The notes: generated by a model not told the origin, from the sequence alone. Shown: positions 9,735-53,495, numbered from the stretch's first letter. The stretch: 53,495 bases of DNA from Prorocentrum cordatum (GCA_963575745.1 CAUYUJ010000311.1:62001-115495); one strand, 5' to 3'. A program made the numbers and translations.

Positions 9735-12700
9735 TCACCTGCCAAGTTGTACGTGTATACACATCTCGGCAATGCCATTGAGAAGAGAATGTGCAGCTGC
9801 CAACTCAGCCTGTGTGATCGTGCAATGGCTAGGGATCATGAAACCTCTGCGGCCAACTCCAGGGTGCCATCCACCCTGCACAAGTCCAGGGGGAAGCTGG
9901 TGAGGAGGAAGAGAGGGAACAAGATAAACATCAATAACCCAGCCACACGAGGTGCCACGCTCACACCGCCCACCGTCAAAAGCTCCTCTAAGTGCACGAA
10001 CAATATAATGACCCGTCTAATATGATAAAGAGTGTTATGATTCCAACGAACATCAGAAGTTACTTTACCCTCACGTGCAAGATGTGTCTCATAGTCCGCC
10101 TCATCGTTGCCCTCCCTATACACCCATTTCCACATATCCCTTCCCACTTCAGCCGTGACAAGATGATGGTCCTCACTCATTCTGTGGAGGCGGTTCTGCA
10201 TACCCTTGATCGTGCGGCGGTATACTTCATTATGACAGCGATATCTTCCATTAAGCCAGCGCACAACACACTGGCTATCCCCACGGAGCTCCAAGCCATA
10301 TCCACCCCCTTCCCCACGCCAAGTGGTTTCATCATCATTTATCGCGGCCAGTCGTTTCGCCACCCGTTCATTTTCCCGTCGTTGCTGCTCCTCAGACTTC
10401 TCCTCCCCCTCCTCCTCCTGCTTGAACTCACCCGTGAAGGGATCCCGAAGAAGGCAGAACTCGAGAAGATCATCCAAGTCCAGGGCGGCCAGGGTACCCA
10501 CCAGGAAAGAACGCCAGCCAGTTTCATTCCAGACCATCGTGCGATCCCAATGAACCCCGCGCGTGTGCTCGAAGACCTCGAACCAAGGCCTGAGTCCCGT
10601 CAAGACTCGATGACGACAGGCTCTAGTAAACCTTCGGCCCCCAGGGAGAGCTCTAACATGTACGTCACGCTGCTCAGTCCACTCCCCCGACGCGTGCATC
10701 ATCGTCAAGGCGCTCTGCATACTGGCAGTGGGCAATCCTCCTTCCTCCTCCCGTGCATAGGTATGGCGTACCCGCTTACGAACAGGCTCATGTACATGTT
10801 GTGAATCGTGATGCTCATATGCCGTGTTCTCCGATATACGTCTGCGAACTGATCTACTTTCCAAGGAAGATGCGCTCTGTGCCTTTCTCCTACACGAACT
10901 GTTGAGCTGTCTGGCATTCGGGGTAGGCGAGGGAACCGATAACTCCAAGAAACGCTGCGAACCACCAAAAATATCAGGATCTCGTGGCTCATGATAAAGA
11001 ATGCCCTGACTGAGTGCGTCCTCATCCACCCGACTATGTTCCTCATGGATTGTGCTCACAACATGTTTGGCGAAGAGCCACTGGCGATGAAGGGCGAGCT
11101 GGACCATCGAAGGCTTACGGGCCCACTTCAATAAGCGACGGCCACCCTTAATCCTCCTGCCCCAGTACTCTCCCCAGGACTCCGTGATCTTCTTTTTGAG
11201 ACGTCTCATGGTGGACAAGAAGTTGCCTTCAGCTGCATGTATCTGTTGGAGACTACTCGAATCCAGAGTCGTACCCTCCAAGCCGTACAGAAAGCAACTT
11301 CTGACCCTGCTATCATAACGCTGAAACTTACAACGAAGCGGAACCACGGGCGACGAGTAAAAAGAAATCTCACTCATGAAGACCCTCCGTGCCTTCTCCA
11401 GTCGGTGCTTAATGTCGTCATGATCCTGAAATCGTACATCCAATAGCGTGCCGAGAACCTCCATCCTCTCCACCTGCTTCACTATCATCTCCTCCGAAGG
11501 GCCTGCGGCGCTCTGGGAAGCCCCACGAGAACGCTTCCTACCCATCTCAGCAGGCAGGAGCCCCGGCACAGGCAGGCGGATATCCTGCAATGGACCTTGA
11601 ACGCCACAAGCCAAGAACTCCATCGAAGATGCTTTCCAGTTGAAACCGAAGCGGTGGAGGACCCCAGTCAAGTCCTCAAGCATATGAGTCAGTTCTCGCC
11701 TGGAAGATGCTGCCAGCAAAATATTGTCTGCCCACAGCCAGTGGTTGACCAAGAGATTGGATGCCTCATCAGTGAGCCTGACGCCGTATCCAGACTGCCT
11801 CCAACCTGCCGTCACTGGTGCAAGCATACGAAGTGTCTGGGCAACAAACAGCAAAGGCGCCTCCAAGGAGCCTGTACGTATGCAAGTATCCCACGAGATG
11901 GTCGTAGAACACTGTTGGAAGCTGATCTCTGCCGTATTACAAGCATAACTCTCAAAGACAGCATACACAAGGGCAGGATGGACATGATGGAATAAAAGCG
12001 CCTCTGCTGCACATCTCACCGTGAAATTATCAAACGCCTTTTCAATGTCAGCACTTGCAAGATAAAGACTCTCCTCCTTCCCCCACACAACGCCGTGTTG
12101 AGCAAGACGTTTGAGGGGGGCCGTGACCTCATAACATTTGTGCCCCGCAATAAAGCCATATAAGTTGCAACCTGGCGGTGCAGCCTGCCGAACGCGGTGC
12201 TCTAGAAGTACACATAGACAACTGCTATACCACTTACCAAAATGAGAAAGAAGTGAGAGGGCCCGCGTTTCTTCAAAATCACGAGCCTTGGGATTCTTAG
12301 GCATCAAGCATACCAAGATCTCTCTCCAGGACTTCGGTGAAACATGTTTCTGATCGTACAGCAAACGGAATAAGGTAAGTATGTGTCGGAGGGCTTCCCA
12401 TGGCAATGCTTTGAGCACCGATGACGTCACCCCGTCTGCACCTGTTGCCCGTCCTTCCCTGAGTCTAGACCGTGCCTCCAGCAAGAGACCCATGTTGATC
12501 GGGTTGCGGTGGGGCTCTCCAGAGTCTCGCAGGGCCTTACACTGGTTCTTAAGCTCATCCAAGCACGCGTTGGTGTCCTGTCGGTGGGGATCGCTGGAGT
12601 ACCTCAGGAGCCCATGCCGCCGAAGGCCCTCAATCCACTTCTCCTGGTCACGCGTGAGGACCCCGTCAACATACATGTGCGTAATAACAGGCCTACGACG

Positions 12701-14002
12701 GACACCATCACGAATACGGTAAAGCTCACATGCACGATCATGACGCTTACGTACTCGACGCCACCTCCTTGCTGTCCCCTTGTACTCCTCCTGGACTCTC
12801 TCGTACTCCTCCTGTCCCACGTTAGCCCCGCCATATCGTGCCACCCTCCACCTCTTCCTGACCTTAAAGAACTCCTCCTTTATCAGTAAATCCTCCTCCG
12901 AATATCTGGGATAGTCTGAAACAGGCTGACCACGGGAACGGGAGATATCCAAAGTCTCACTGGCACCCTCAAGTATACTCTGTGTCATGACCTCAAAACC
13001 TACATCCGTGTGGATCTGATTCACGAGCTCGGGCTGGCAAATCGCTCTCTCCAAGCCGGCTGTCTGCTGGAGCTCGAACCCTGGCTGAAGCTTCCAGGTC
13101 TTGAGCTGAGGCCGACGTCGATACCTCAACTGAGCATGCTGGGCGGGCATATCGGCACACAAGAGCTTGTGATCGCTAAACGTCCTTTCCGTCGCCTCCG
13201 ACCGTGGGACCTGGGACGGCACAACCCAAGAACAAGTCACCTCTGGAGTCATCCAAGAAGCTGGGACCGCAAGATAATCATAGACGTGCTCGTATGTGCT
13301 CGAATTGTGTCTCCAAGTAGGCTGACGAGTCCCAAAAGTGTTGGCTAGCTGCAACTTGAGGGCCCCCATGGTCTTCAGAAAGGCCCCCGAGTACATCTCC
13401 CTCATCCTGTTGGCTCTACTTTCGTCACCTCCACTAGACCTCCCCCTCTTACGTATAGGCCCATTCACCGCCTCCCCCGTAACCTCCACCCCATTGATCC
13501 TGTGGTGCGGGAAAACCTCCACGTTGGCGTCAGCCGAGATAACAACCTCCTCAATGTGAAATCGCTTTTTGGCCGCAGAGACATGTGCAACAAGATCCGA
13601 TAACACGTCCGTATAGAGCTTGAAACTAGCAAGAAACCCTTCAGGAGAACGGCGTGCTTCACCCTGTGCACCCCGCTCAGACTCCTTATGAGGGAGATAG
13701 ACAGAAACGAAGATGAGCTTGCGAAAGATTGCAATGACCCAGCGGCGACCACACACAACATCGATAAGCAGATGTCTCCATACACCTCGGCACAAGATGG
13801 CAGCCCGTCTCCCCACGTTCTCCCCTTCATCTGCCGAGCGATGTATATCCCAACCCGCATCTGCAAGATCCAAGTCGTGTAAGAACTGGCTCTCTTGGAC
13901 CCCGACGATGGAAATCTTTAATTCGGCAATGTGATTCATGCACTCGGAGGTGTATCTTCCCAACCTCCGAACGTTCCAACCTCCAACAGAAGCTGGGCAC
14001 CG
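9735..14002 (-). CDS. E1 ORF2: APE endonuclease, reverse transcriptase and permuted RNase H; frameshift near 10000-10040
   Basis: GWNV, VQE, SVYLP, ADAN, YDYL, SDH (APE); ADIEKAFD, IRTGSLEAP, WADN (RT); GDSQ...REGNDEAD, then in a shifted frame RGAFDGG...TITQAELAAA ending at TGA 9735-9737. The frame is open up to the ORF1 stop at 14003. Confidence 0.88.
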
Positions 14003-15537
14003 TCACGAGCTGCTATTCACCTGCCTCTCCCAAGTCTTGCAGTCCAGATCTGGATCGATGTGCTGGACCCGCTCGGACACGAACTTCCATCCCACGGTAT
14101 CCGTCCACGTACCTACACACACTTTATCACTCTGACTATCCTTCTGCAGGTATGCCCAAGCCTTTGCAGGCCCTTCAGGCTCAAAAGTGATGAGAGCAGT
14201 GGCAACAGTCTTGAGCTTATGAAAGATCGCAGTCGCCTTGCGAGTCTCCCCCACTCTACGTCGGTCCTGTGGTGCCGGTTGGACAAACCAACCGAGGTGT
14301 CGATCTTTGCATGGTCCAAAACTATTCTGACAACCGACCAGATCAGGGCACGAATTGGACCAGGCTGAGGCCCACTCGTTGCGTACTTCCCAGACCGTCT
14401 CTTTCGAAGTCCCTGGCATGAAGTATATGCGAAACTTGGTCACACCAAATCGATTGGAAGCGATATCCCGTCCGTCCTACCTCTGTCGAAGATCTTAGTA
14501 ACGTCACTCTCCCGTGCTTGCGATAGTGTGTACAACTTACCTATCATGTTCCTAACCGTGGTGACCTGGATCTTGGCCTTATCTCGAGTTTCAACCTTTC
14601 GGGGGTCCTCTTGCGCGAAGCCGCTCACCTGGATCCAAGTCGGAACATGTGGTACAAAGGGTCTCTGGAAGTCAGCAGTCCGAGAATCACGAGTAGACGC
14701 ACCTCCCAGAGATGATGAATCTGCCCAGGGATCTCTAGAGTTCATCTGAGACTGAAGTGCTTTGATCTCTTTCGCCTGGGCCTCCTGAGCTGAACGAATC
14801 TCCTGCACCGACGAAGCAATAGGGGCAACCTGCTCTGATACCCTCGTTTGAATCTGCTCTTTGATGTCAACAGAGTTCTGCATAAGCATCCTCTGCATAT
14901 CTTCACGCATGGCATCGAACTGTGCACGGAGCATAGTGGCCAGATCTCCAGCATCACCTCCTCCTCCTCCACTACTACCACTTCCATTCCCACTAACTGC
15001 CCCACCTCCACCACCCTCGGCATCACCAAGAAGACGTCTATCTTCCAGGAGCTTCCTCTGTCGCTTCTCTCCGTTGCCCTCAGTTCCCATATCATCATCA
15101 GAAGTCGGAACCATCTTCCTCTTAAGATCACACTGCCCACAACTGGAAGTAGAATACCGATAAGCTCGACAAGTAGGGCACCTACTAGCCTCCAGATCAC
15201 GATAGTGTTCGTCCTCGAGTTCTTCAAGAAACTTATCCCAACCCCGTGAAGGTGAAAGTCGGTACGTGATGAAATCTGCTGCAACAAAAACGGTCAAAGT
15301 GTCCTTCTCAACTGCCAGAGCAAAACTGGTAAGTGCCGGGCTCCCAAGAGTATCACAAGCAAACAGCAAAGATACAAGTGCAACAGGTAGCGGCCTTGCG
15401 CCTCCAGCGGCACGTGTGGGCTCACCCGCTAACACGAGCAGAGTACAAATGCAGCGACCTATGCGCAGCACGTCCAGGAGGTTGCAGCCGACGAAGTACA
15501 CGAACTTATGGGCCAGCGCGCACCCACGCGCGCCCAC
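14003..15537 (-). CDS. E1 ORF1 (coiled coil plus putative RRM-like domain), frameshifted near 14440; start uncertain
   Basis: ORFs 14440-15537 and 14003-14443. A heptad-rich segment is followed by PTWIQVSGF, matching the motif in the E2-E4 ORF1 proteins. Confidence 0.7.
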
Positions 15538-16035
15538 GGCCGCCCAGGGGGCAGCCTGAGGAGACAGGCTTGAGGAGGCCCCCGACGGGCCAGGCCACCG
15601 CTGAGATCCCCGAGGAGGGACAGCAGCAACCTGGTCACCGCCGGGAACCTCGTAGAGCTCCTTACACTGGTCAGAGTCCTCAGAATCGAAGTGGAGTCAT
15701 AAAACAAAGATTTTCCTAAAATCTTGATTTTCGATTTTTTTTTCGATGTTCATATTGACTCGGTTCCGGGAAGTCAACTCTTAACAAAATACGTCGGGAG
15801 AGCTCAGCTGCTGTCAGAGAGAAGTTTATATGCCAATGCTCGGCGTAAAACTGCTCTCACAAAAAATGGTAAATATCTTTCAAATCTTAGCAAAACCGAC
15901 CCAAAGTCGTCACATATTCTTTTCTGGCCGGGTCGACCAACTAGCTCAACCCCGCGCCGGAATTCCTCTAGCTCATCGATAACGAAGAGCTCTACGAGGT
16001 ATATTGTTGTGCGTCGGCTTCGTCGCAACTTTTAC

Positions 16036-17360
16036 GCCTCAGCCTGCCTGAGCCTCAGCCTTAGCCTGCTTCAGCCTCAGCCTCACTCTTCCTGCAGCCT
16101 CGGCCTCAGCCTCAGCCTGCCTCAGCCTCAGCCTGCCTCAGCCTCAGCGTCAGCCTGCCTCAGCCTCAGCCTCAGCCTGCCTCAGCCTCAGCTTCAGCCT
16201 GCTTCAGCCTCAGCTTCAGTCTGCCTTCAGCCTCCGCCTCAGCCTCAGCCTGCCGCGGCCTCAGCCTGCATCAGCCTGAGCCTCATCCTCAGCCCGCCTC
16301 AGCATCAACCTGCCTCAGCCTCAGCCTCAGCCTCTGCCTGCAGCCTCGGCCTCAGCCTCAGCCTGCCTCAGCCTGAGCCTGCCTCATTCTCAGCCTCAGC
16401 CTCAGCCTGCCTCAGCCTCAGCCTGCCCTAGCCTCAGTCTCAGCCTCAGCCTGCCTCAGCCACAGCCTCAGCCTGCTTCAGCCTCAGCCTCAGTCTGCCT
16501 TCAACCTTGGCCTCAGCCTCAGCCTGCAGCAGCCTCAGCCGGCATAAGCCTCAGCTCATCCTCAGCCTGCCCCAGCAACAGCCTGCCTCAGCCTCAGCCT
16601 CAGCCTGCTTCAGCCTCAGCCTCAGCCTGCTTCAACCTGAGCCTCAGCCTGCCGCCTCAGCATCAGTCTGCCTCCAGCCTCGGTCTCAGCCTCCATCTGC
16701 CTCAGCCTCAGCCTGCATCAGCCTCAGCCTCAGCGCAGCCTGCCTCAGCATCAGCCTGCCTTAGCCTCAGCCTGAGCCTGGCTCAGCCTCAGCCTCAGCC
16801 TCAGCCTGCTTCAGCCTCAGCCTCATTATGCTTGTAGTCTCGGCCGCAGCCTCAGCCCATCCTGAGCCTGCCTCAGCCTCAGCCTCAGCCTGCCTCAGCC
16901 TCAGCCTCAGCCTGCCTCAGCCTCAGCCTCAGCCTGCCTCAGCCTCAGCCTCAGCCTGCTCCGCCCGATCCCCAGTCTGCCCTCAGCCTCGGCCTCAGCC
17001 CCAGCCTGTCGCAGCCTCAGATTGCATCAGGCTCAGCCTCAGCGTCAGCCTGCCTCAGCATCAGCCTGCATCAGCCTGAGCCTCAGCCTGCAGCCTAGCC
17101 TGGCCTGCCTCAGCCTCAGCTTCGCCTTCTTCAGCCTCAGCCTCAGTCTGCCTTTAGCCTCCGCCTCAGCCTAAACCTGCCGCAGCCTCAATCTGCCTCA
17201 GCAAAAGCCTCATCCTCCGCCTGCCTCAGCATCAGCTCGCGTCAGCCTCAGCCTCAGCCTGCCTCAGCCTCAGCCTCAGCCTCAGCCTGCTTCCACCTGA
17301 GCCTCAGTCTGCCTTCAGCCTCGGCCTCAGCCTTTGCCTGCTTCAGACTCAGCCTCAGCA
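16036..17360. repeat. Degenerate (GCCTCA)n microsatellite with GCCT interruptions, about 1.3 kb
   Basis: Directly visible. It produces spurious SA/LS/PQ-repeat ORFs. Confidence 0.95.
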
Positions 17361-17805: not shown

Positions 17806-20149
17806 TTTGCGTCTTTTGCGAAGGCCGGTTCGAGCTCTCATGGGAGCAGGCCTAAACACAAAGAACCTAAACAGCGAAGCTGTACAGGAAGACAGCGAAG
17901 CTGCAAAGATTCAAGCAGAGGTGCATCAAACAGCGAAGCTGTACAGATATGCACAAGACTGCCAATACGCGAGAAGACAAATAAGAATAGAAAGAAGGAA
18001 GCAAAGCAGTGCGAGACCATGCAGTAACCACATATAGCGATCACCGTCTCAGCACCACTGAAAATAAAAGCAGTGAGAGACCATGCAGTAACCACTGGTT
18101 TATACAGCGATTACCGTCTCAACACCACTGAGACAGACACAAAACTAACAACTAAAAAGGACGAGTACACTTCAAAGCAATGCGAGACCATGCAGTAACC
18201 ACATACAGCGATTACCGTCTCAGCACCACTGAAAGACCATGCACGTGAAACACAACAACGAATTTGCGCCACCGTAGTGTCGACCAGATCAAAGGCCTAC
18301 TTTGAGGCACCACGTGACAAATCACGGAAAGTCACGTTCAAAGGTCAATGAGCACTCAAATCAAGGAAGCAACGAATGACCTACTTTGAGGGATCAAGCG
18401 AAGCTCTTATTCAACACACGCGCATGCACGACAACACACACATGCATGAAGAAAGGCAACGCAATGACAAATCAAGCGTGCAGGATCAATCACATGTGCA
18501 TCATCTGTGCCGTTTCCGATGCTTATTGCCGCTCCGCGTCAATACACTCCTGGAAGTAGAACTCTGAGGACCCCCTTGTTGCGAATCATCCTCCTCGGAA
18601 CTTTCAATTCCCAACTGCAGCCTGCATGCATTAAGAGCCTCAGTCCTACGCTGAAACTCCTGTGTCGGGAGTCGGTGTAGCTCAAGCCAAAGAGCCCTTA
18701 CATCGACACCGGCAAGGGCCCAGTCCCTGGCAGCTTGGCACTCAGAGCGTGTCTCACTCGGTCGATCTGCAGAACTCCCATTCATGGAACTCCCTACTGC
18801 ATCAGCTGAACTCCCAACTGCAGAACTCCCAGCTGTTGAACTCCCAACTGCATCCTCAACTGCATCAGCGGAACTCCGAACTGTGGAGCTTCCTACTGCA
18901 CTCCCAAGTGTTGAACTCCCGGCTGCACTGGAACTCCCGACTGCATCAACTGTACTCAAAACTGCGGCACTCTCCACCGCACTCCCGTTGGTCGCATGCA
19001 ATTCTGAAGTGTGCAACTTTGTATCCATCTTAGCAACTGCTTCACTATGAACATTATCCTCCTCCTCGTCCTTGCGGCCAGGGTTCGATGCCGCAGCATC
19101 AGCTGAACTCCAAACCGCGGTACTCCCAACTGCAGAACTCCCAGCTGTTGAACTCCCAACTGCATCAACAACTGCATCAGCGGAACTCCGAACTGTGGAA
19201 CTTCCTACTGCACTCCGAACAGTGGAACTCCCGACTGCGCAGGAACTCCCAACTGCAGAAGCATCACCCTGATCAGCGCGCACTCGATGACACTCCTCCT
19301 TCTCCTCCTTACCAACAAAGAGAACACAAAGATCAGTCTGAGTCCCACACTCAATGTGAACACAGGGATCTGTCTGAGTCCCACAATCGGAACACTGCGA
19401 ACACAAAGAGTTGCCAGCCAATTCAACAGCATCCATATCAGTCTGTGTTCCACAAGTGTACTCATACCACTCCTCTTCCTCAGAATCGTCCGAGCAGAAA
19501 TTCCGATAATATCTGGGCGCGAAAATGCCCGCGCGAACAAGGCACGACGGATCTGGCCCCCGAGCCGTGGACCACAAACGATACCTGACACGTTTCGCCC
19601 GCAGGCGGCGCAACTTCGATTGAGAAACTTTGACACCATGCCCATACAGCTGGTCTCGCTCATGCATGCGAGACTCACCTCCGTACGAAGGGCGACACGG
19701 CAATATAGATCACTAACACACACTTCGACCGTAGACAAACGAGCAGACAAACAAGCGAGAGACTCGGAAGTAAACAACGCCGTATCTGTCCAATCTGAAG
19801 CAAGAAAATCCGCGCCTGACAATTCAGATTAAACAAACTCCATATATAAAAACGTGGACGCGCTCTACAAGAAGGCAAATCACAAGCAATAACTAGATGG
19901 ACAGTTGAGATAACCAAGGAAAATGCTGTTCCAACGATACTCCGACAATCTCAACAATTATATGCCCTCCGACGACAATGGGCGTGGACAAGCCTTCGAC
20001 AATCAATAAGAGTGTACGGTACTCAGGCAAAACAGACACTGAAGCACCTTGTACGGTAAAGAGAACCAAACGCCAGGCACGGCACGATGCCGCTCGAGGA
20101 GGCCTCCGACGGGCCAGGCCGCCGCTGAGATCCCGAGGAGGGACAGCAG
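17806..20149 (-). mobile_element. Non-autonomous retroposon B, full length, with an E1-like 5' terminus
   Basis: Lies between CAACCAGGTT (17796-17805) and CAACCTGGTC (20150-20159). About 55 nt at the 5' end are nearly identical to the E1 5' end. The 3' stem-loop is shared with A, C and E1. Confidence 0.8.
18501..19703 (-). CDS. Hypothetical low-complexity protein in retroposon B (three CGTQTD, many AVGSS repeats)
   Basis: 400-aa ORF that is also open in copy C despite substitutions and an in-frame indel. Confidence 0.45.
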   Translation of the reverse strand: MPCRPSYGGESRMHERDQLYGHGVKVSQSKLRRLRAKRVRYRLWSTARGPDPSCLVRAGIFAPRYYRNFCSDDSEEEEWYEYTCGTQTDMDAVELAGNSLCSQCSDCGTQTDPCVHIECGTQTDLCVLFVGKEEKEECHRVRADQGDASAVGSSCAVGSSTVRSAVGSSTVRSSADAVVDAVGSSTAGSSAVGSTAVWSSADAAASNPGRKDEEEDNVHSEAVAKMDTKLHTSELHATNGSAVESAAVLSTVDAVGSSSAAGSSTLGSAVGSSTVRSSADAVEDAVGSSTAGSSAVGSSADAVGSSMNGSSADRPSETRSECQAARDWALAGVDVRALWLELHRLPTQEFQRRTEALNACRLQLGIESSEEDDSQQGGPQSSTSRSVLTRSGNKHRKRHR

Positions 20150-20159
20150 CAACCTGGTC

Positions 20160-22030: not shown

Positions 22031-23700
22031 CAACCTGGTCACCGCCGGGAACATCGTAGAGCTCCGTTCTCGCGCGGCGCTGATCCGTCGAGTTTAAATT
22101 TTTCCTTTGCGCGGAGCTGCTCGGAACACATGAAGAGCTTCATCAAGCGTTAGCTATTGATATATATATATATATATATTAAAAACTCGAGAAATGTTCT
22201 TTCTGGGTTTTACGCAATACCGGTTCTTTTGATAGAAATAATGCAGCTAGAGCCCTACGAATTGCACCATCGAACGCCATGATTCACTGCAGAGCATAAA
22301 AACCTGGATTTCCAAAACGAATTTCAAATCTCTCACAATCTCCGAAAAACAAGTGTCACACATTGTCCGCCAGGGCTGGCTGGGTCAACTGGACGCCGGC
22401 GGTAAACCGTCAACCTTTCTTACCGTAGAGCTTGCTGACCATATATTATGTCCAAAGAATAAGCAGAGAACGAATAGTTTTTCAGCTGGAGCGCTGATAG
22501 CAGACTGATCTCAGGCGATGCAACAGACAGACGCGCCAACTTATTTTGCATTCGTTTCTGTGCGCATCACCTCTGTAGCTGCCCTAGACATCGAGTTAAG
22601 TAGAGAAACCCGACAGTCTCTGTGGAGATAACTCGAGCAATACGAACAGTTTCGCGAACCTAGCTCGAGTAGCAGAAAGATCCCAGACCTCTGGATGCGA
22701 CTGGCGGACGCGCCTGATGTCACTGAATCAGTTTCTGTAATTACCAGCCCTGTAGCCACCCTACAGCCCGAGTTAAGTCCAGAAAACCGACAGCACCTCT
22801 CAAGATGACCGAATAGTTTCGCGGACCCAGCTCGAGCAGCAGACCGACTTCAGACCTCTGGGTGCAACAGACGAACGCGCCTGATGATTCTGGATCGGTT
22901 TCTGAAAGTATCAGCTCTGTAGCTGTCCTTGAGCTCGAGTTATGCACAGAAAACCATGACCGCGTGTCAAATGACCCGAAACACCCGATCCGGCCCGTGT
23001 GCTTTTTGGCAGCAATATCTACGCCTGAGAGCGCCTGGGTACGCTTGAGAGCGCGTCTTGGCCACCCTGGCTCGGCAATCCTGCAGCACTATGCTCTGTT
23101 TCTTCGTTTATACGTTGGGAATCTGCGTCGCCTACTGGGAACTGGCGGTAAACCGTCAACCAGGTTACCGCCGGGGCCCTCGTAGAGCTCTTTTCTCACA
23201 CGGCGCTTCTCGTTAAGCATGAAGAAAGCGTCTAGAGCAAGACCTAAGAAACTCGGAAAATCCCGTTTTTCTGTTTTTATCCAACGTCGGTTCCCCCAAG
23301 TGTTTCGATAGTAATACCGCACCTACAGACCTGCAAATTTTATTGGCAAACGCGACATAACCCACTACAGGTGCGAAAAATCTGTTTTCTCAAAATGAAT
23401 TGTCAAACATCTTTCAAATCGTAGCAAAACCGACCCAAAGTCACCACATTGTCTCTTTTGGCCGGGTCGGCCAACTGGGCGCCGGCGGTAAACCGTCAAC
23501 CTTCCTTTTTTGCGGACTTTGCGGTCGACTGTGCAGGCTTTCCAGCCTAGTCGGAAGCAAGGAGCGGGCGCATCGGGAGTAGGCGGAAGCCTCACCGATC
23601 CAAACGATCAGAGGCGAAAGCCAACTCTTATTAGGAGGATGAGAGGTCAAGCACACACACACGACAAACGAAGGCATGGCGTGAGTGAGCACAATCAAAA

Positions 23701-40924: not shown

Positions 40925-43900
40925 TTAAATCCGCCTCCTCCGCTTTGCAGAGGAAATTTCTTTAACGATGTGCTCCACACCTGTGCACAGGCGCTCGGCA
41001 GCAGATAATTCTGCCTCCGTCACGGTGGCTCCTACATCAAACATGTAGGCTTCTGAGCTCACGAGTGTCCACGGGCCATTCTCTGGAGCAACTTCGATCC
41101 AGTGACCTCCTGCAGCACCCTCACTGCTCACTCCACCATCCCAGCATCCTCTGATGTATTTGATGTTTGTCCTGTTCTGTTTGATATAGTCGTGCTTGTA
41201 AATTCTGTAACAGTTTCCTTCTCTCGCATGGTGTGTAAGCTCATCAGCATAGGCATTGGCTTCCCTATAGATATGTTTCCAGAAATCCCTACCGTACGTC
41301 GGGCATCGTATGTTGTGTTGTTCACTCACGTCATACATGATATTTTGTATCCTGGCGATCCGTTTGGCATACCCACTGTTGTCACAAGCCCAGACTCCCC
41401 TCAACCATTGTACGACCGTTTTACTGTCTCCGCACATTTCAACAGCGATACCTTCCATCCCAGGGTCCCATATCGTAGTCTGTTCATTAATAACTGCAAG
41501 ACGTCGGGCCAACTCGTCATCTGTCGGTGTCTTCGCAAACCCTCCCATCCTCCTCTCCTTACTCCTCCTCACAAACATATCCTCCACTTTGGGTATCTGT
41601 GATATGCGTTCCACAAACTCCTCCCAATCCGTCGGTACAACGCACGTGTCGTGCCACAGAAGAGACCTCCATTTTTCAAAGGGTGCATGCCAGCTGCTCG
41701 CCACGATTCGTGGTCTGCCTCTGAGCCGTCTCGTTCCCTCTCTCGACATCGTCCGACTTACTGCCGCCAGCATTTCATCCCTCTGCACCGTCCACTCCCC
41801 TGATACGTGCAACATGGAGCGCAGCGTCTGCTGCCACGATTTGCTGTACACCGTGGACGGCATGTGGCACTTATATTGGGATACCTCCACGGCGAATTCA
41901 AAGTTATACCTCACAACTTTCTCCACCAACGTTTTGAGCCCCCCCTCCTTGAACATCTCCCTGGATCTATTGGTACTGCGATCCCTGAACTCCTCCCACG
42001 CTTCCGTCTCTTTTCTATGTAATCCTCGCATTGTGTTCAAACATATTCCTTCAAAGCTCCTCAATATGTTCAGCACATGTTCATTACAGCTCCACCCCAC
42101 ACATCCATGGCATATGATCTGTTGAACTCTGCTCTGGTACCGTCTGAATTTTTCCCTCATGCTCACCGCGCGTGATCGATAGAATTTAATATCAGCATAG
42201 AAACACCGCCTGCCTGCATCAATACGGTGCCGCACTGCATGGAAATCCCTCGGGTTCGCCACAAATTTAACTCCCAGTATGTCACACTCGCTTTTTCTCG
42301 GCAGAACCACTGCCTCACGTAATTGATAGGGTAGGCTGGGGTCTCCAGCCCGTGCACAAATATCATCTCCCAGTTCACAAACTAATGATTGTGGTCCCTG
42401 GTTCTGTCTCAGCCCAAAAACCAGATACTCCAGGCTCTCAATCTTCCAGTCCATACCAGCCCGTCTGAGGGCCACGGTCAACATACTCACCATATTCCTC
42501 AGCTGATTCGCTGAGGCTGCCAGCAGCACCACATTGTCAGCCCATATGTAATGGTTGACCAGCGCCTGTTGTGTCCCCTCGCCTTCCAATCGTACTCCAT
42601 AATGACATGCTTCCCATGATTCAGCAATAGAGGCCCAAATTGCCTCCAACACAATATTGAAGAGCACTGGGCCTTCTTTCCCTCCAGTTCGCACCGACTT
42701 GTTATACAGGATCTCTTCACTGCACACATCCTGGAAATCAAAAACTGCTGTGTTTCCAATCATAGGCTCCACAATTGCAATAATCAAATATGTTGGATAT
42801 CTCAGATGTTCCATCGCGCGGATCACCATCGAGACAGTGACATGATCAAACGCTTTCTTTACATCCATTATCCCCATATGTACCGACTCGCCCTTTCCCC
42901 AGAGAGTGGCATGACGTGTCATATGCAGCAAAGGGGCCGTCATGTGATGAACTTTGTGACTCTTCTGGAATCCATATGTCGCCAATTCTTTGATATGTCC
43001 ATGCTCCTCCACAAGAATAAGAGGGCACGCCATGTACCACTTGCTCATAACACTCAACAGCGATATTGCACGAGTCTCCCCAAATGTTTGGATCATGCTC
43101 ATTTTTGGAATCAACTGTACGCACAACTTTCTCCACGAATCTGGTGACGACTTTTTCTGATCATGTATTTCTTGAAATGAGTGTCGTATCAATCTCAATG
43201 CATTCCAAGGTATTGCTTTGAGAAACTCCGCCACCAGGCCATCAGAGCCCGCTGCGGTGCCGCCCTTCAATCGGGCTCGAGCCCCCAGCAACACACCCAT
43301 AGATATGACCCTGTTCGTAGTTCTGCCCTCTGCCTCCCACTGTGTCCGTAGTCGATGCAACTCTCTCTTTGCAGCTCCTCCCTCCCCATCACATGTATAT
43401 GACCGTTGTACGTGTTTGTTGAGCTCCTCCACCCATCTTTGTTTATTTTCTGTCAGTATCCCGTCACACAGCATTTCCTTGATACACCTACGGGGTCCAT
43501 GTTTGAGGCCAGTGGAGTCCTTGAGGAGCTGTTCCCGCCTGAACTTTCTTCGGAGTGTTTTTTGACGTCTCAATAATTGTTTCCTACGCTCACCGAAGAC
43601 ACCCCTCCTTAACTCCGCTTCAACGTCCACGACTTGGTCAGGTTTTTTGATTGGTTTAGTATCCGCCCTGCCCTTTGTATGCCTACACATCGTCGCAGCA
43701 CTCACAAGCATCTGTCCCACTGTTTGTATATTTATGTCACCCTGTTGGTTCATATGTTGTTGTACCTGCACATCGGCCAGCGTACTGAACACATTCGCTG
43801 ACTCATAATCCTCCGGGGCCCAATTGATGAGGCTCGGGGGCCTGGGTCGCACGAAAGGCTTGCGCACCGACGCATGTTTTATCCTCACCCCTACCTTCGC

Positions 43901-44659
43901 ATGGTCACTGTAGCGTGACGCTCGATCCTGTGTAGGATCAACAAATTCCACCGTGCATTCAAATGAGCAGTTGGTCCGAGCCTCCTCGGTACCTGCAAAT
44001 TGTGTCGGCACAAATACATAGTCCAACACCCTGGAGTAGCTGCTGGTACTCCACGGCCTGTGCGTCACTTGTCGCACGCCGTAGGTGTTGGCTGCACAAA
44101 GACCCCAGTGATTCAGAAAGCGCACGAGCATGTCCCTCCTCTCCTCATGATGTCTCGCCTCCGACCTCATCCACACCTCCTCCAATCCTTCTCCCGTGAA
44201 CCCCAAGAGATTTGGTTCCAGCTCCGTCTGCGCACCTGCCCCCACAAACTGCAATACATTGGACCCCTGGTATTGCTCGCTACATAGTTGCATGCATGCA
44301 CACAGCTTAGCTAGAACGTCACAATATTCATCGAGCCTATCATCTCCCCGCTGCACTGTGGGTAGGTACACTGAGGACACGACCACAGATGCAAATTGTA
44401 CAACTGCAAACCTCTCACCGCACTTACTGTCCGAAATAGTCGCCGCCCATAGGCCCCTGAAGGCCACAGCAGCTCGTCGGCACACACTAAAACGCACCTG
44501 CCACCCACATGCTTCAAATGCTTCGGATAACATGTACTGACACTCCTGCAAGCATAGCACATCACAATGACAAAACTCCAGCATTGCTGGCAAAAGCTCG
44601 CTATTCCTCATGTTGACATTCCAAGTTGCCACCGCGAGCTGAGTGGCAGACTGGCACCG
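40925..44659 (-). CDS. E3 ORF2: APE, RT and permuted RNase H; the APE xDxN motif is degenerate (GAGAQ)
   Basis: ATWNV, LQE, SVYLP, LDY, SDH; MDVKKAFD, VRTGGKEGP, WADN; GDSKTVV...REANAYAD...WDGG...TEAELSA. Confidence 0.9.
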   Translation of the reverse strand, partial: RCQSATQLAVATWNVNMRNSELLPAMLEFCHCDVLCLQECQYMLSEAFEACGWQVRFSVCRRAAVAFRGLWAATISDSKCGERFAVVQFASVVVSSVYLPTVQRGDDRLDEYCDVLAKLCACMQLCSEQYQGSNVLQFVGAGAQTELEPNLLGFTGEGLEEVWMRSEARHHEERRDMLVRFLNHWGLCAANTYGVRQVTHRPWSTSSYSRVLDYVFVPTQFAGTEEARTNCSFECTVEFVDPTQDRASRYSDHAKVGVRIKHASVRKPFVRPRPPSLINWAPEDYESANVFSTLADVQVQQHMNQQGDINIQTVGQMLVSAATMCRHTKGRADTKPIKKPDQVVDVEAELRRGVFGERRKQLLRRQKTLRRKFRREQLLKDSTGLKHGPRRCIKEMLCDGILTENKQRWVEELNKHVQRSYTCDGEGGAAKRELHRLRTQWEAEGRTTNRVISMGVLLGARARLKGGTAAGSDGLVAEFLKAIPWNALRLIRHSFQEIHDQKKSSPDSWRKLCVQLIPKMSMIQTFGETRAISLLSVMSKWYMACPLILVEEHGHIKELATYGFQKSHKVHHMTAPLLHMTRHATLWGKGESVHMGIMDVKKAFDHVTVSMVIRAMEHLRYPTYLIIAIVEPMIGNTAVFDFQDVCSEEILYNKSVRTGGKEGPVLFNIVLEAIWASIAESWEACHYGVRLEGEGTQQALVNHYIWADNVVLLAASANQLRNMVSMLTVALRRAGMDWKIESLEYLVFGLRQNQGPQSLVCELGDDICARAGDPSLPYQLREAVVLPRKSECDILGVKFVANPRDFHAVRHRIDAGRRCFYADIKFYRSRAVSMREKFRRYQSRVQQIICHGCVGWSCNEHVLNILRSFEGICLNTMRGLHRKETEAWEEFRDRSTNRSREMFKEGGLKTLVEKVVRYNFEFAVEVSQYKCHMPSTVYSKSWQQTLRSMLHVSGEWTVQRDEMLAAVSRTMSREGTRRLRGRPRIVASSWHAPFEKWRSLLWHDTCVVPTDWEEFVERISQIPKVEDMFVRRSKERRMGGFAKTPTDDELARRLAVINEQTTIWDPGMEGIAVEMCGDSKTVVQWLRGVWACDNSGYAKRIARIQNIMYDVSEQHNIRCPTYGRDFWKHIYREANAYADELTHHAREGNCYRIYKHDYIKQNRTNIKYIRGCWDGGVSSEGAAGGHWIEVAPENGPWTLVSSEAYMFDVGATVTEAELSAAERLCTGVEHIVKEISSAKRRRRI

Positions 44660-46279
44660 TCAATTGTTCGTCTGTCTGGGCTTCGTGAGTAACCCCTCTT
44701 GATCCACCTCAGGCTCCACCCTCCTCAGATTATTAGTGTGTAGCGCCCACCCGCTGTGTACACCCCATTCAGCAATCAGTACTCTGGTGTCTGGATCTGC
44801 TTGTGGGTTTTGTGTAAACCATATGTATGATTTTGGCGGCCCTGGCTCCCCCTTGCATATTGTCCCCGTCGTTGTCTTCACTTCCGCAAAGCAACTCTGG
44901 AACTTACCAATCTGTTGGACATGGGGTGTTCTCCATGGCGCGCATTCTACATGAAACTTTACATTCGGTGGTAGGTCAGTGTTTCCCCTCTTGTATTCGC
45001 TGTCGAAACAATTCCGAACCTGCCATATGATCTCCACTGCCGTCCCCTTTTTGAAATAGATCCGCCCTCGTGTGTATGGCCAGTACCTGCCAGTATTCTC
45101 CCCCGCAGTTCTCGCATGATCAAAAGCAGCATTATGTGTTGCGTCCAGCGATGCCAATCCCAATAATTTTGTTATGTTGTCGGCCAGCACCTGTTGTTTC
45201 AAGGCCTCCCTTTGTTTTATCTCTCTATTCTTCCAACCCTCACGTGATATCCAACCTTTGAACTCAATATATGATGGTACCCAGTTCGAATTTGCCCTGC
45301 ACCACTGCCCGCATCACCTGATCCGTATCTAGTCGAACCGCTTGCGCAAGATTGAGCGTCTCCATTTTTCAGATTCTGAATGTCAGCTTGGGCCTGCTTC
45401 ATTTGCTCAGATAACGTTTTGACATCTGACGTTGATGGTACCCAGTTCGAATTGTGCCCTGCACCACTGCCCGCATCACCTGATCCGTATCTAGTCGAAC
45501 CGCTTGCGCAAGATTGAGCGTCTCCATTTTTCAGATTCTGAATGTCAGCTTGGGCCTGCTTCATTTGCTCAGATAACGTTTTGACATCTGACGTTGTTCT
45601 ATCAATCTTTTCCTCCATGACATGTAAATCAGCTGCAACCGATGTTTTGAACTCACTAACCGTCGCAGTTACTTCACTCTGGCCCTTCAAAATCTGTCTG
45701 AACATTTCCTCGGGCGTCATTGTAGCTGGTTGAGGCGCCTGGACAGCAGCACTTTGAGCTACGGCCAGACCACTCGTAGCCTTGGGGACTTGGGCTGTAG
45801 CTAGATGAGGCGCCTGGACAGCAGCACTGGAAGCCGCGGCCAGACCACTCGAAGCACTGGAACCTTTGCCCTCCCCTTTTCGCCCTCACCTCTCTCAACC
45901 ATTCACTACTCGCATTCCCTCCCATTTTGCTATCTTCTGCTTTGTCATCCGCCATGATTGCTGACGAACGTCGTTTATTTCTCTCTTTGACTGTACGCAA
46001 TGTGTGAAGTGCAGCCTGATATCTATCTGATTGCCCAATCTTCTTGAAATCGTACGCTTCCTGCTGAACAAATGCCTCTGGTGGAGAAATTTCCAATTCC
46101 AGTGCTATCTGATCTTCTCTCTTCTCCTGCGTCGTTAATCGCGGCACAGTAGCTGATGTGTCTTTCAACCAATCACACGGATGTGGGTCACAATCCACAC
46201 CAAAGTCAGCTGACGTGAAATATTCACTCTGATCGTCTTCTGATGGTATAATATATGCTCCCTGCGAGTCCGTTTTCAA
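44660..46279 (-). pseudogene. E3 ORF1, broken by frameshifts and an internal duplication of about 161 bp (45272-45432 / 45433-45594)
   Basis: ORF pieces 45674-46279, 45217-45720 and 44660-45202. Coiled coil and WVPSYIEFKGW motif across the shift. Confidence 0.75.
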
Positions 46280-46521: not shown

Positions 46522-46548
46522 CTTGAGCCAAAATGGCTTGAGCCAAAA
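46522..46548 (-). other. Two tandem relict dinoflagellate spliced leaders
   Basis: The minus strand reads TTTTGGCTCAAG-CCATTTTGGCTCAAG at the exact 5' junction of E3. Confidence 0.9.
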
Positions 46549-47840
46549 TCTGCCAAGGTAACTTGAAGAATGCGAAGAGCTTTGCTGAGCTAGTCCGAGA
46601 GACAAACCGAGTTCAGACCTGGATGCAACAGACGAGCGCGCAGAATGATTTCGAATCAGTTTCTGTGCGCATCAGCTGTGTAGCTCTCTGACAGCACCTG
46701 TCAAGATAACTCGAACAATACGAATGGGTTTGCGAACCTAGCTCGAGTAGCACACCGAGTTCAGACCTCTGAATGCGACAAGCGGACGCGCCTCATGTCC
46801 GAATCGATTCCTGTGATTATGCCCCCTGCAGCCCCCCTACAGACCGATTTCAGTGCAGAAACCCGACAGCACCTCCCAAGATGACTCGATCAATACGAAT
46901 AGTTTCGCGAACCTAGCTCGAGTAGCAGACCGAGTTCAGTCCTCTAAATGCGACACGCGAACGCGCCTGATGTCTCCGAATCGATTCCTCTGATTATGAG
47001 CCCTGTAGCCCCCAACAGCCCGAGTTAAGTGCAGAAAACCGACAGCACCTCTCAAGATGACTCGAACAGTACGAATAGTTCGCGACCTAGCTCTGGCAGT
47101 AGACCAAGTTCAGAGCTCTGAATTAACAGACAAACGCGCCCGATGATTCTGAATCGGTTTCTGTAAGTATAAGCTCTGTAGCTGTGCTACAGCTCGAGTT
47201 AAGCACAAAAAACCGACAACGTCTGTCAAGATGACTCGAATAATACGAATAGGTTTGCGGACCTAGCTAAGCTAGCAGACCGAGTTCAGACCTCTGGATG
47301 CGACAGACGAACGCGCCTGATCATTCTGAATCGATAAGGTGTGCTTACCAGCTCAGTAGCTGTCCTGTATCTCGAGTTGAGTCCAATATACCGACAGCGC
47401 GTATCAAGATGACTCGAAACGGCCGATCCCGCCACAGTGCTTTTCGATAGTAAGATTCACCCGATCTAGCTTAGATCAAGATGGCGAGCGGGAATAAGAT
47501 CGAACATCACGGGAAAAAATACTAGAGCTCAAACGAATGTTCAAATTTTGAGAACATAATTTTCAAGAGAGAGCTTCTCGAAGCATTTCTCGAAAAATTG
47601 AACATTGATTTTGTAAATGTCGAAATCAAATTGGTTTCCCAAATTGTTTCGGTAGTGAAAGAGCGCCTAGAAAGCTCATACTAAGACGCTGGAGCTCTCA
47701 TAACCTTTTACAGGTGCGAAAAATCTGCTTTCTCAAAATGAATTGTCAAACGGCAACCGGCGGTGAACCGTCAACCAGGTTCTAGGCGTTCTAGGCGGGC
47801 CCTAGCAGGGTTAAGCTCCTTAGGAGCCCCAGACCCAGTC

Positions 47841-50800
47841 CTACAGGGGATATCCTGACAAACTCAGGATATGCACCACTCCTAAAAGGAGCTCTCGGGC
47901 AGCTTCTAACTCAGCCTCTGTGATAGTGCATTGCGCTGGGAGAAGGAAGCTTTTGAGACCTACATTCTGGCGCCAGCCAGTCTGATTATAGTAAGAAGAA
48001 GAGGGGAGAGCACTACACACATAGCAATCCAGATACCAGCCACAGCCTACACCAAGAATCGATCTCCCACCATCAAAGCCTCCTTTGATCCCCGAGATCA
48101 CAACTTTACAAACTTTCACTTCCTGAAGAAAACAAGTGTCATAATGTTCGTAACATTCACCTCTCCGCGCGGTCCACGTTAATTCATCGGCACGAGTATT
48201 GCCCTCCCTATACACCCACTTCCACACGTTCCGTCCTAAATTGGCAGCTCGTAGTCCACATCTGTCGGCTAGATCGTTTGTAGTGTCCTGCGCCCACATC
48301 ACGCGGCTAGCATCCTTTCTATTAGTGATACTACTCAAGCCCTCCAACCACCTGATCACACATTGTGAATCCCCCATCAGTTCCACAGAAATTTTCCCTG
48401 GCACGAACTCAAATTCAGTATGATCCTGGAATATAGCAATGAGACGTTTGGCAAACTTATCTGGGTCCTCCTGCTTCTTAATCGTCTCCTCCTCCTCCGA
48501 CTCCTTCCAGGGCATAGGGTCTTTCAATACACAAAGGTTCAACATCTCAGGAGCGTCCTTCAAGACAGTCCTCCCAAAGAATATCCAGCTAGCCTCATCC
48601 CAAGCAATACCGTCGATCCAGAACTTCCCCGCCACCTCTTCGAACACCCTGGCCCACGGACACATACCCAGAAGCTTGGTTGACTGTCCCCTGGCTCTCG
48701 TCACCTCCCGTGCACTCTGCGTGTCAAGAGTCGCAATAAAGTCATCCCGTCTAGCAGTCCATTCGAAACCTGCATGCAGCATGAGAAGCCTACTTTGAGC
48801 ACCTCGGTCAACATGCTCCCCTTCACGAAAACGAAGCTTTCTCCCTGGAAATCGACCCTGCTTCTCCTGGACCCTGGTCTGCAACCTGGACGTGTTCTGA
48901 GACAACCCTTCACAAGCACGTTTTGCCTCCCTGATGAGAGCACTCTTCCTCTTCCTCCTGTTTGGCTCCTCCACCTCCACCTCCATCATCTCCTCCTCCA
49001 CGCTCTTCCCAATCAACTGAGACCCTCCCGTTGCAGAGATGCTCGAGTCCTGCAGCGAGTCTGGCATATTTTCAAAGCACTCCGTGGCAATATCCTTGGC
49101 CCACAAGAACTGCTTGTGCAGGTACAGCTGGACCAAGGACGGTTTCCCTTCCTTGAGTAGCATCGAGCGCCCACGTCGAAACATACGTGTGATGAAGGTC
49201 GCGAAGTCCTCTCCGTTGCGCTTCTGGCGCCAGCACATGCGAGAGAGCATATTGCCCTCCTCCTTATGTAGAAGTCTCAAAACACCAATATCTGAAGATG
49301 AACCCTCAACTCAATAAAGAATCTGAACTCTCACTCTTGCATCATATATTTTGAATTTTCGTCGCCAAGGAATGACCATACTCTGATAATATCGTCGATC
49401 TCGCCAAAAAGCTGAAATACCTTTTTGCAGTCTGTATCGAATATCGTGATAGTCATCGAGTGTTCTATTCAACTTCGTGCCCAAAACGATGATCTCGTCA
49501 ACCTGCTTAAGTTCCACAGTGGTCTGGTTGACAGCTTCAGATGGCGACACATCCAGAGCCCCATTTGAACTTCCACACATATGGTTTCTAACACCCGAGC
49601 TTGAACTTCCACACATATGGTTTCTAACACCTGAGCTGGAACTTCCCAATCTCTCCAGTCCTGGTGGTGTCATGGTAACCGTGAGCGGGTCGAAGACATT
49701 CTTCAGCGCGCCAATGTCCATATACTCGAGCGAGGTAGGCTTCCATCTGAGTCCCCATGCATGTAGTGGTACAGTGAGCTGCCAGATCATCTCCCTCAGT
49801 GCTGGTCTAGAATCAGCAATCAAAACAAAATTATCCGCCCAAATGAAGTGCGAGATCGTAATAGAAGCAGCCTCATGTGATAGCTTCAGGCCTATACCTT
49901 TTTGTTCCCAGTCCGAGAGCACCCTGCCCAAACATGCAATCGTGACAATATTCCAAATATCAGGGCCTTCAAGGGACCCCGTTTTGATACATGAGCTCCA
50001 CGGTAGGCTTGCTGATTCCACTGGACCAAATCGAAAAGTCGCCGTTACATCTGCATTCTGCTCCAAGATCGCATACGCTAGCTCTGGGTCAACATTAATA
50101 TCATACATCGCTCTGTCTGCCATCGGTATCGTGATGTTGTCAAAGGCGCATTCAACATCTAGAACTCCCACACATGCATTCTCGTGCTTCCCCCAGAGCC
50201 TGGCGTGCCTAATCAAGTTCTTCAATCCTGCTGTTATCTCCCTGCATTTCCGTCCCTCATGAAATCCATACAAATTGATTCCCGTCCGAGGCGTATTCTG
50301 TTCAACATGACGATTGAGTAAGATACACAAACACGCCGTATACCATTTCGAAAGCACGCTATTGAGAGCCAAAGTACGCGTACTGGTGAACTCTGGCTTC
50401 TTCGTATCCTTCAAGATGAGTGTAGCTAGTAAGTTTCTCCAAGACGGCGGTGACTGCAATCGTCTATCATACAGCTGCTGGAAACAATCCAAGACCACTC
50501 TGAGGGCCTCCCAAGATAGGCTGCGTAAAAGAGCTGCTGATATACCGTCATAGCCAACTGCCTTGCCCACCTTGAGGCGAGCTCTCGCTTTATGTAGAAT
50601 ACTCATCGTGATGGGAGAAGAATCTGCATTGAGTCGAGTGTGCTGGATTGCTCGCTGCTTAAGTCGAGCCAAGCATTCTACATTTTGTTGATGGAGTGTT
50701 TGGCTGGAGTATTTCACCCGGGCGATTTTGGCGATTTCCGCTTTCCAGGACTCTCGATTCTCTGTCATGGTACCGTCAATTTTCATGTGTGTGACGACTG

Positions 50801-53448: not shown

Positions 53449-53495
53449 TTCTGGAATGGCAAGGTGATTACCGACGTATCTGGTTCCTGGACGAT

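Follow-up and report, generated by a model that had tools for sequence, protein, structure and literature searches.

We have analysed a stretch of 53,495 nucleotides from the dinoflagellate Prorocentrum cordatum (GCA_963575745.1 CAUYUJ010000311.1:62001-115495; hereafter the window, with positions counted from its first letter) and describe here four long interspersed nuclear elements (LINEs), E1 to E4, in which motif C of the reverse transcriptase (RT) reads Trp-Ala-Asp-Asn (WADN) instead of ending in the two consecutive Asp residues of the YXDD box, the second of which is present in nearly all known RTs. In our reading, to which we assign a probability of about 0.68, these LINEs are four divergent members of a large and old superfamily of non-LTR retrotransposons in which motif C has Trp as its aromatic residue and in which, for most lineages, the Asn has been inherited and selected, and their own RT would be active by ordinary target-primed reverse transcription, with Asn serving as a neutral ligand or hydrogen-bonding group. 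The WADN motif was first noticed in a prediction made from the sequence alone (the original prediction), several claims of which are taken up below.

Asn in motif C of the four LINEs and their relatives

When the window was searched with the pattern TGGGCNGAYAAY, which represents the codons of WADN, exactly four matches were found in the 53,495 bases, all on the minus strand; 0.05 matches were expected by chance, and none of 100 shuffled sequences gave four. The sites are TGGGCAGACAAT in E1 (11723-11734), TGGGCGGACAAC in E2 (25414-25425), TGGGCTGACAAT in E3 (42533-42544), and TGGGCGGATAAT in E4 (49830-49841). In this order of coordinates, the codons are GCA, GCG, GCT, and GCG for Ala, GAC, GAC, GAC, and GAT for Asp, and AAT, AAC, AAT, and AAT for Asn, so that both the four positions and the synonymous differences noticed in the original prediction are confirmed. 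On the same strand, motif B reads CIRTGSLEAP in E1 (11855-11884), CIRTGGPEGP in E2 (25558-25587), SVRTGGKEGP in E3 (42668-42697), and CIKTGSLEGP in E4 (49962-49991), and these translations are identical to the strings quoted earlier. Motif A is ADIEKAFD in E1 (12029-12052), ADIKQAFD in E2 (25735-25758), MDVKKAFD in E3 (42845-42868), and LDVECAFD in E4 (50139-50162); its D-x3-AFD core, called motif 3 in the original prediction, is thus intact in all four copies. Each WADN site is located inside a long minus-strand open reading frame (ORF), namely a LINE ORF2 with endonuclease-like, RT, and RNase H-like regions. The four ORF2 proteins are only 28-39% identical in pairwise comparison over the full length, and they hence represent four old lineages rather than fresh copies of one element. 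In none of the four copies does motif C have two consecutive Asp residues, and the first Asp is retained in all of them. When aligned with hmmalign, WADN occupies the profile columns of FADD/YADD in LINE-1-like relatives; the Asn is the homologue of the second Asp of F/YADD.

The RT itself is of the LINE type according to Pfam, a profile search of the PDB, and a structural model. Namely, the Pfam family RVT_1 was matched by the three full ORFs, P0003 (E 9.8e-15) and P0001 (8.6e-08) above and P0002 just under the cut-off (27.3 bits versus 29.6), and P0003 also matched RVT_3. In the profile search (hmmsearch), the best sequence match was LINE-1 ORF2p (6.6e-12). An AlphaFold2 model of the E3 RT, built from an alignment of 88 rows, was confident (pLDDT 92.1 and pTM 0.90) and, in Foldseek, resembled human LINE-1 ORF2p (9hdo_A, E 1e-18) and R2 (1.9e-17), with a TMq of 0.73 to 8sxt_A; as far as can be judged from the model, the fold is that of an ordinary LINE RT. 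Modelling of the active site had been proposed as a check, and W268-A269-D270-N271 indeed falls on the motif C β-hairpin between strands 265-268 and 271-276, while D161 ends the motif A strand and the motif B helix (224-246) begins at E224. As to a placement in the L1 clade, LINE-1 ORF2p is the nearest solved protein, R2 scores nearly equally, and no Pfam family was matched by ORF1. For the N-terminal region of ORF2, matches to Exo_endo_phos stayed below the Pfam cut-off of 24.5 bits (21.3 for P0003 and 23.6 for P0014), and an alignment of this region has conserved WN..., QE, DAN.E, and SDH strings, which we take to be the motifs of EEP, an endonuclease similar to the apurinic/apyrimidinic (AP) type.

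In order to know how common WADN is, a profile (A2) was made from the RT regions of the four window copies and run exhaustively against 1.84 billion representative proteins, in place of a word-indexed homologue search that had returned only one match. The profile gave 19,622 matches at E ≤ 0.001, with 121 at E ≤ 1e-30, and the best 150 of the 19,622 were taken as a census; 133 of these cover motif C, and 17 do not. Among the 133, an xxDN motif was found in 87 (WADN in 73, WSDN in 7, WVDN in 3, FADN in 3, and YADN in 1), an xxDD motif in 42 (WADD in 21, FADD in 10, YADD in 8, and YSDD, WMDD, and FVDD in one each), and other readings in four (WANN, WADS, LAGS, and FAED). A family in which most members carry YADD or FADD would, by the original prediction, have refuted it; among those of the best 150 that cover the motif, the majority is of the Asn type.

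We then placed 97 sequences on a tree, comprising the four window copies and 93 database sequences that fill at least 80% of the profile columns 16-325 and cover motif C; the four columns of motif C were removed, and the tree was built with a quick IQ-TREE run under LG+G4. A group of 77 rows, here called the Trp superclade, is separated with a support of 97 from 20 LINE-1-like rows, 18 of which are of the F/Y-x-DD type. The Trp superclade contains two clades composed entirely of Asn sequences, one of 30 rows including all four window copies (support 92) and the other of 25 rows (support 95), and also a mixed group of 20 rows (13 WADD, 5 WADN, and 2 FADD). Summed over the branches, the two all-Asn clades amount to 26.1 and 21.7 substitutions per site, throughout which Asn is unchanged; a single transition converts the codon of Asp into that of Asn or back. 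The other catalytic residues are kept as well: in the 61 Asn rows, the motif A Asp is present in 61, the following Ala and Phe in 58 and 60, the motif B Gly in 61, and the first Asp of motif C in 60. Synonymous divergence (dS, NG86) was saturated or undefined in the pairs copy 1/L002, copy 4/L003, copy 1/copy 4, and copy 2/copy 3, with the nonsynonymous divergence (dN) at 0.42-0.82, and ORF2s of 1200-1450 residues are open in many lineages. An Asn unchanged over about 48 substitutions per site, together with the retention of the other catalytic residues, argues for a polymerase selected for catalysis in which Asn is preferred. The homologue alignment recommended along with the original prediction hence supports it, in that WADN is homologous to F/YADD and kept across very divergent lineages; judging from this comparison, WADN is the norm of the family, an inherited and selected state and not damage.

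Anatomy and mobility of the elements

All four elements are on the minus strand. E2 (29145 to about 23508) is apparently intact, with an ORF1 of 490 residues (27676-29145), an in-frame TGA (27673-27675), and an ORF2 that is open throughout (23701-27672), so that its ORFs are uninterrupted as had been claimed. It ends in a run of six A (23511-23506) and is flanked by a 12-bp target-site duplication (TSD), AAGGAAGGTTGA (29157-29146 and 23507-23496); the two flanks together restore a palindromic host repeat unit. E3 (46545 to 40864) has an intact ORF2 (40925-44659) preceded by an in-frame TGA (44660-44662) and an ORF1 that is broken, about a tandem duplication of 162 bp (45272-45596), into three frames. 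Its 5′ end consists of a truncated and then a full relic of the 15-nt dinoflagellate spliced leader (46545-46522), beside a 13-bp TSD, CCTTGGCAGATTT (46558-46546 and 40863-40851), and its flanks, when joined, make one unit of a ~177-bp satellite, into which E3 was inserted. E1 (9495..15626) is damaged; its ORF1 occupies two frames (14443-15696 and 14006-14476), and, after an in-frame TGA (14003-14005), the frame of ORF2 (9836-14002) is shifted ahead of the C-terminal RNase H half. At its 3′ terminus (9502-9495), E1 ends with CCAGGTTG. E4 (47841..53495) is also damaged and extends with its 5′ part beyond the end of the window; ORF1 (52192-53493+) and an in-frame TGA (52189-52191) are followed by ORF2 in pieces (50902-52188, then after a frameshift 49311-50981, and then 47841-49310), with an in-frame stop at 49311-49313 and a 36-bp tandem duplication at 49565-49646.

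The TSDs were read by eye, since an automatic search for exact 11-mers was swamped by satellite repeats. The earlier claim of clean TSDs stands for E2 (12 bp) and E3 (13 bp) but not for E1, where the flanking 8-mer CCAGGTTG is its own 3′ terminus, nor for E4, whose end is off the window. As is typical of LINEs, which lack long terminal repeats, a TSD flanks E2 (with an A-run) and E3, and a conserved 3′ end is present in E1, a mini-element described below, and L002. L002 is an intact element in a metagenome contig, with an ORF1 of 364 and an ORF2 of 1358 residues and with WADN; E1 is 54% identical to it at the protein level. The same intact element was found in a different metagenome record (L001), with 100% identity to L002 over 2700 nt of ORF2. 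In tandem behind E1, there is an ORF-less mini-element of ~1.17 kb (8326..9494), which has a 5′ untranslated region (UTR) similar to those of E1 and L002 (about 9460-9150, with a 16-mer in common with the E1 5′UTR) and a 3′ end of the E1/L002 type that terminates in CCAGGTTG (8440-8326); this conserved 3′ end is common to E1, the mini-element, and L002. From this arrangement, the mini-element is probably an internally deleted, non-autonomous derivative that was copied in trans.

The spliced leader, in the sequence printed in the portion of PMC12014239 available to us, was searched for with up to two mismatches, which gave three matches against 0.15 expected: exact ones at 5385-5399 (plus strand) and 46522-46536 (minus strand) and, abutting the latter, one with two mismatches at 46537-46551 (minus strand). 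By these relics, we regard the window as dinoflagellate nuclear DNA. The 15-nt relic was absent from the 30 metagenome loci searched. At the extreme 5′ end of E3, such a relic means that a trans-spliced mRNA was the template of this copy, and the two relics there point to at least two rounds of retrotransposition, an argument made for retrogenes in the same part of PMC12014239. With the TSDs, the A tail, and the spliced-leader relics at a 5′ end, the elements did retrotranspose, as the original prediction had concluded; the 12-bp TSD and A-run of E2 and the two leader relics beside the 13-bp TSD of E3 carry this conclusion.

Contigs of a sequencing run (X1; probably DNA) add to the picture of E3. 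Its sequence is covered by 1450 pieces, 766 of which are at least 99% identical, and although the depth of these contigs gives no copy number, so many near-identical pieces point to a multi-copy, recently amplified E3 family. No variant at a level of at least 10% was found at the WADN codons of E3. Two further runs, X2 and X3, presumably of RNA, gave no pieces on the element, and among the runs listed as containing it none was of RNA. The contigs differ from the window's E3 ORF1 by 1-nt insertions or deletions at 45292, 45712, and 45877, so that other copies of E3 may have an intact ORF1.

ORF1 lies upstream of ORF2 in E1 to E4 and in L002, and in all five elements the two share a frame, with a single TGA between them that is followed by CGG or CGA (in L002, the TGA is at 1441-1443). 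Between this TGA and the first ATG of ORF2, the W-N strand of the endonuclease is conserved, which presumably carries the catalytic Asn of AP-type endonucleases. Its position upstream of the first ATG suggests readthrough of UGA and thereby an ORF1-ORF2 fusion; ORF2 would thus probably need either UGA readthrough or non-AUG initiation. No conserved RNA structure was found downstream of the TGA (consensus energy, -0.52 kcal/mol).

At the C-terminal end of ORF2, an RNase H-like domain was recognized in E2 (23704-24300), E3 (40928-41480, with a permuted order of motifs), E4 (47844-48400), and L002 (about 5000-5580). In all 17 aligned sequences (E2, E3, E4, L002, L003, and 12 database relatives, WADD members included), the motifs come in the order of GDS, RE-N-x2-AD, DGG, and T-x2-EAEL, which is not that of canonical RNase H (type 1), in which the catalytic residues are ordered as D, E, D, and D. 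A model of the domain, confident over residues 90-270, begins with strand-helix elements (103-178) and continues with a three-stranded sheet (200-238) and a helix (245-275). With Pfam RVT_3, the C-terminal half of the profile is matched first, and, in P0145, the N-terminal half is found at the very end of the protein. Also, in hhalign, the first half of the domain corresponds to the C-terminal part of a canonical RNase H and the second half to its N-terminal part, although the P values (0.001 and 0.0024) are weak. VIA-align gave only partial matches to RNase H1 (Z 3.9 and 3.7), which have the highest identities in the list; the match with Z 3.9 has 27% identity and covers model residues 93-183. 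No RNase H was among the matches listed when the model was compared with the PDB by Foldseek, and the last 96-110 residues alone matched no RNase H family in Pfam. The domain is, on the evidence of the model, apparently circularly permuted, and in the searchable literature, outside of which the subscription journals fall, we found no account of such a permutation for the RNase H of non-LTR elements.

The surroundings of the elements are rich in repeats. E1 and E2 are inserted at the same point within a recurring palindromic host unit (..CCGGCGGTAA..GGTTGACGGTTTACCGCCGG..), which was found at the ends of E1, E2, and the mini-element (15627-15660, 29146-29200, 23460-23507, and 8300-8333) and also at 40630-40700 and 23150-23215. 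The 3′ end of E1, CCAGGTTG, matches the target sequence, and the flank of L002 bears the neighbouring motif of this host repeat; the sequences may therefore reflect a preferred target site with microhomology at the 3′ end. Satellite arrays with a unit of ~172-178 bp are situated around and between the LINEs (22643-22955, 29264-29919, 32675-40399, and 46690-47418), and another tandem array (31308-32447) has an 89-bp unit with 92-97% matches and higher-order periods of 223, 312, 401, and 490 bp. Immediately upstream of E1 is a degenerate (GCCTCA)n microsatellite of 1.3 kb (16036-17359). Two similar minus-strand ORFs (18501-19703, 400 residues, and 20689-21996, 435 residues), rich in 15-, 27-, and 51-bp repeats, have the appearance of a repetitive gene, or pseudo-ORF, that was duplicated locally. 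In the left part of the window, which is GC-rich (60-66%), the spliced-leader relic at 5385-5399 (plus strand) comes directly after a 335-bp sequence repeated three times in tandem (4380-5383); this relic may mark a retrocopied host gene.

Proposed catalysis with Asn and its alternatives

If the RT works as we propose, the Asp of motif A and the first Asp of motif C would hold the two metal ions, and Asn would act through its side chain at the site of metal A and the primer 3′-OH, either as a neutral ligand by its oxygen or by hydrogen bonding. RNA-virus polymerases with GDN or ADN are taken to work likewise. The consequence would be a weaker or altered dependence on metal and not a loss of function. 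ORF2 would provide an AP-type endonuclease, a LINE-type RT, and an RNase H-like domain, and the elements' own Asn-type RT would have done the copying. Variants of motif C with Asn do work in RNA-virus polymerases according to the accessible part of PMC12518664, and those passages of PMC9752661 that could be consulted give as working variants the GDN of polymerases from negative-strand RNA viruses and the ADN of birnavirus VP1. Also, from what is available of PMC11618517, D186 of HIV-1 RT was not seen to contact Mg2+ in recent time-resolved structures, and the second Asp is 3.9 Å from site A in the classic structure. Taken with the conservation described above, the Asn-type RT is probably active.

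Several points weigh against this reading. For LINE-1, metal binding is ascribed to D702 and D703 alike, and both are altered in the mutant commonly used as a dead RT (PMC10830416, in the part available), and ADN is reported to lower the activity of the birnavirus enzyme in the partial text of PMC9752661. Of the four copies in the window, all but E2 are damaged (E1, E3 in its ORF1, and E4). Since the profile derives from four sequences with WADN, this motif has a slight advantage in ranking; the census is limited to the best 150 matches, of which 57 were left off the tree as fragments. The state of D or N is not strictly bound to clades; at least four changes are needed on the tree, a single clade of all 61 Asn rows is rejected (p-AU 0.017, for a group defined post hoc), and the nearest sequences to a WADD fragment, P0041, are of the WADN type. 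The superfamily thus includes Asp forms, which could act in trans.

The last point leads to an alternative in which the Asn-type RT is dead or nearly so and the elements owe their copying to Asp-type LINEs acting in trans, in the manner of short interspersed nuclear elements or processed pseudogenes. The metal-binding role ascribed to both Asp residues of LINE-1 (PMC10830416, as above), the WADD relatives within the superfamily (21 of 133 among the best 150), the damage in three of the four copies, and the ORF-less mini-element with E1-type ends (8326-9494), from which mobilisation in trans would follow for this family, would all be in line with it. A dead RT, however, would not retain the motif A Asp in 61, the first motif C Asp in 60, and the motif B Gly in 61 of 61 rows, nor would its Asn stay constant through some 48 substitutions per site. 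It would not leave ORF2s of 1200-1450 residues open in many lineages either; dS is saturated with dN at 0.42-0.82, and no Asp-type LINE is found in the window. We therefore consider this alternative unlikely.

The original prediction favoured a rewired site, in which the Glu of motif B (E224 in the model) takes over the metal binding of the lost Asp. This Glu is found in P0004 as well as in the four window copies; 68 of 84 Asn sequences have an acidic residue at the position, where most of the F/YxDD relatives have Leu; and E224 starts the motif B helix, which in RTs packs under the catalytic sheet. The acidic residue is, however, equally typical of the WxDD relatives (15 of 22; 10 of 15 on the tree) and missing in 16 of the 84 Asn sequences, and no co-change with it was seen in the independent D/N contrasts, which are underpowered with only three or four cases. 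Since it is common in WxDD as well, the acidic residue characterizes the Trp superfamily as a whole rather than the change from D to N; by this comparison it would predate that change or be independent of it, and would be at most permissive. As the specific compensator, Glu is thus not borne out, and we rate this possibility as low as that of copying in trans. The "invariant" Glu and the replacement of Gln by Thr hold for the four window copies but not family-wide, where E/D is found in 47 and Thr in 16 of the 61 Asn rows. On the tree, Thr-for-Gln is absent from all 35 Asp rows, and, of 17 occurrences in a larger set, 16 belong to Asn sequences and one to the WADD fragment P0041. Read from these counts, the motif B Thr may depend on the Asn background, and Asn does not need the Thr.

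Much less probable is an editing of the AAY codon of Asn from A to G (or A to I) in the RNA, by which a canonical WADD protein would be made. A single transition would suffice, and RNA editing of nuclear transcripts has reportedly occurred in a symbiotic dinoflagellate. The mRNA of a LINE is its own template, however, so that an edited base would be inherited and AAY soon replaced by GAY; AAY nevertheless persists in the four divergent copies and in L002, xxDN in 87 of 133 relatives, and the X1 contigs have no variant of at least 10% at the codon, as stated above with their probable nature as DNA. We also set aside a spontaneous deamidation of Asn to Asp, because the residue after Asn is hydrophobic (I, V, F, or L), a context in which deamidation is slow. 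Least probable of all, a LINE-derived family of host genes, that is, a domesticated RT-like protein that has given up polymerase chemistry, would fit with four copies on one strand, as in dinoflagellate gene arrays, and with the deep conservation at the protein level but hardly with the TSDs, A tail, 5′ leader relics, ORF1 partners, and conserved 3′ ends, with the deleted mini-element, the insertions into satellite and palindromic repeats, the damaged copies, and the many near-identical X1 pieces, or with endonuclease, RT, and RNase H-like motifs that are all kept.

Known systems and implications

With human LINE-1 ORF2p (8C8J, 8UW3, and 9HDO) and other LINEs of the APE type and with R2 of Bombyx (8GH6), the elements of the window share the order and fold of the RT motifs A, B, and C. 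The likeness to LINE-1 and the APE-type LINEs extends to an ORF1 and ORF2, an N-terminal AP-type endonuclease (putative here), TSDs, an A-run, and the Ala-Phe of motif A. They differ from LINE-1, in contrast, in motif C (W-A-D-N here and F-A-D-D there) and in motif B, which is Gly-Gly-x-(E/D)-(T/S/G)-Pro here and x-x-Leu-Ser-Pro there, with Thr for Gln in the subclade of the window; furthermore, the elements have an ORF1 without a Pfam family, the TGA-CGR junction in frame, and the C-terminal RNase H-like domain in an apparently permuted form. An endonuclease, an RT, and then an RNase H-like domain are also found in the RNase H-bearing clades of APE LINEs (I, Tad1, LOA, ingi, and some plant or protist L1-like elements), from which the window elements differ in the non-canonical order of the RNase H motifs and in the Asn of motif C.

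In terms of the active site, the closest parallel is in the viral polymerases with GDN (negative-strand RNA viruses) or ADN (birnavirus VP1), known to us from partial texts, which have the same palm fold and an Asn after the invariant Asp of motif C. Those enzymes are RNA-dependent RNA polymerases, the substitution is not of shared descent, and in birnaviruses the order of the motifs is permuted as well, unlike in the RTs of the window. By this analogy, the RT of the window most likely works as the viral GDN/ADN polymerases do. The start of E3, a truncated relic and then CCATTTTGGCTCAAG, resembles that of the dinoflagellate retrogenes in the parts of PMC12014239 and PMC8045281 at hand; the tagged retrocopy here is the retrotransposon itself and not a host gene. 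In these same parts, retroposition in dinoflagellates is attributed to unnamed retrotransposons (PMC12014239), and the LINEs of Symbiodiniaceae are portrayed as remnants that are old and diverged (PMC8045281). In the searchable literature, with subscription journals and Repbase lying outside, we found neither an account of an RT lineage with xADN nor one of the other features of these elements.

We tentatively extend our reading to a whole superfamily, a statement that in our estimate falls somewhat short of even odds: an ancient and still mobile dinoflagellate LINE superfamily might have an RT with two active-site carboxylates and an Asn, the first natural RT lineage without the second Asp of YXDD, together with a fusion by UGA readthrough and a permuted RNase H, and might be the long-sought source of the enzyme behind the massive production of retrogenes in dinoflagellates. 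The two-Asp YXDD box is treated as the signature of RT and is used by annotation pipelines to call RT genes "intact" or "dead". If our reading is true, a large and evidently mobile xADN LINE family would show that an RT can do without its second Asp, and xADN LINEs would serve as a natural system for the role of this residue, which is left open by the D186 structures of HIV-1 RT in the part of PMC11618517 available. The Asn-type RTs may also differ in metal dependence, speed, or fidelity, which might be of technical interest. For dinoflagellates, the finding advises caution against scoring their LINEs as inactive from the motif alone, and the Asn-type LINEs would be a candidate enzyme for the formation of dinoflagellate retrogenes.

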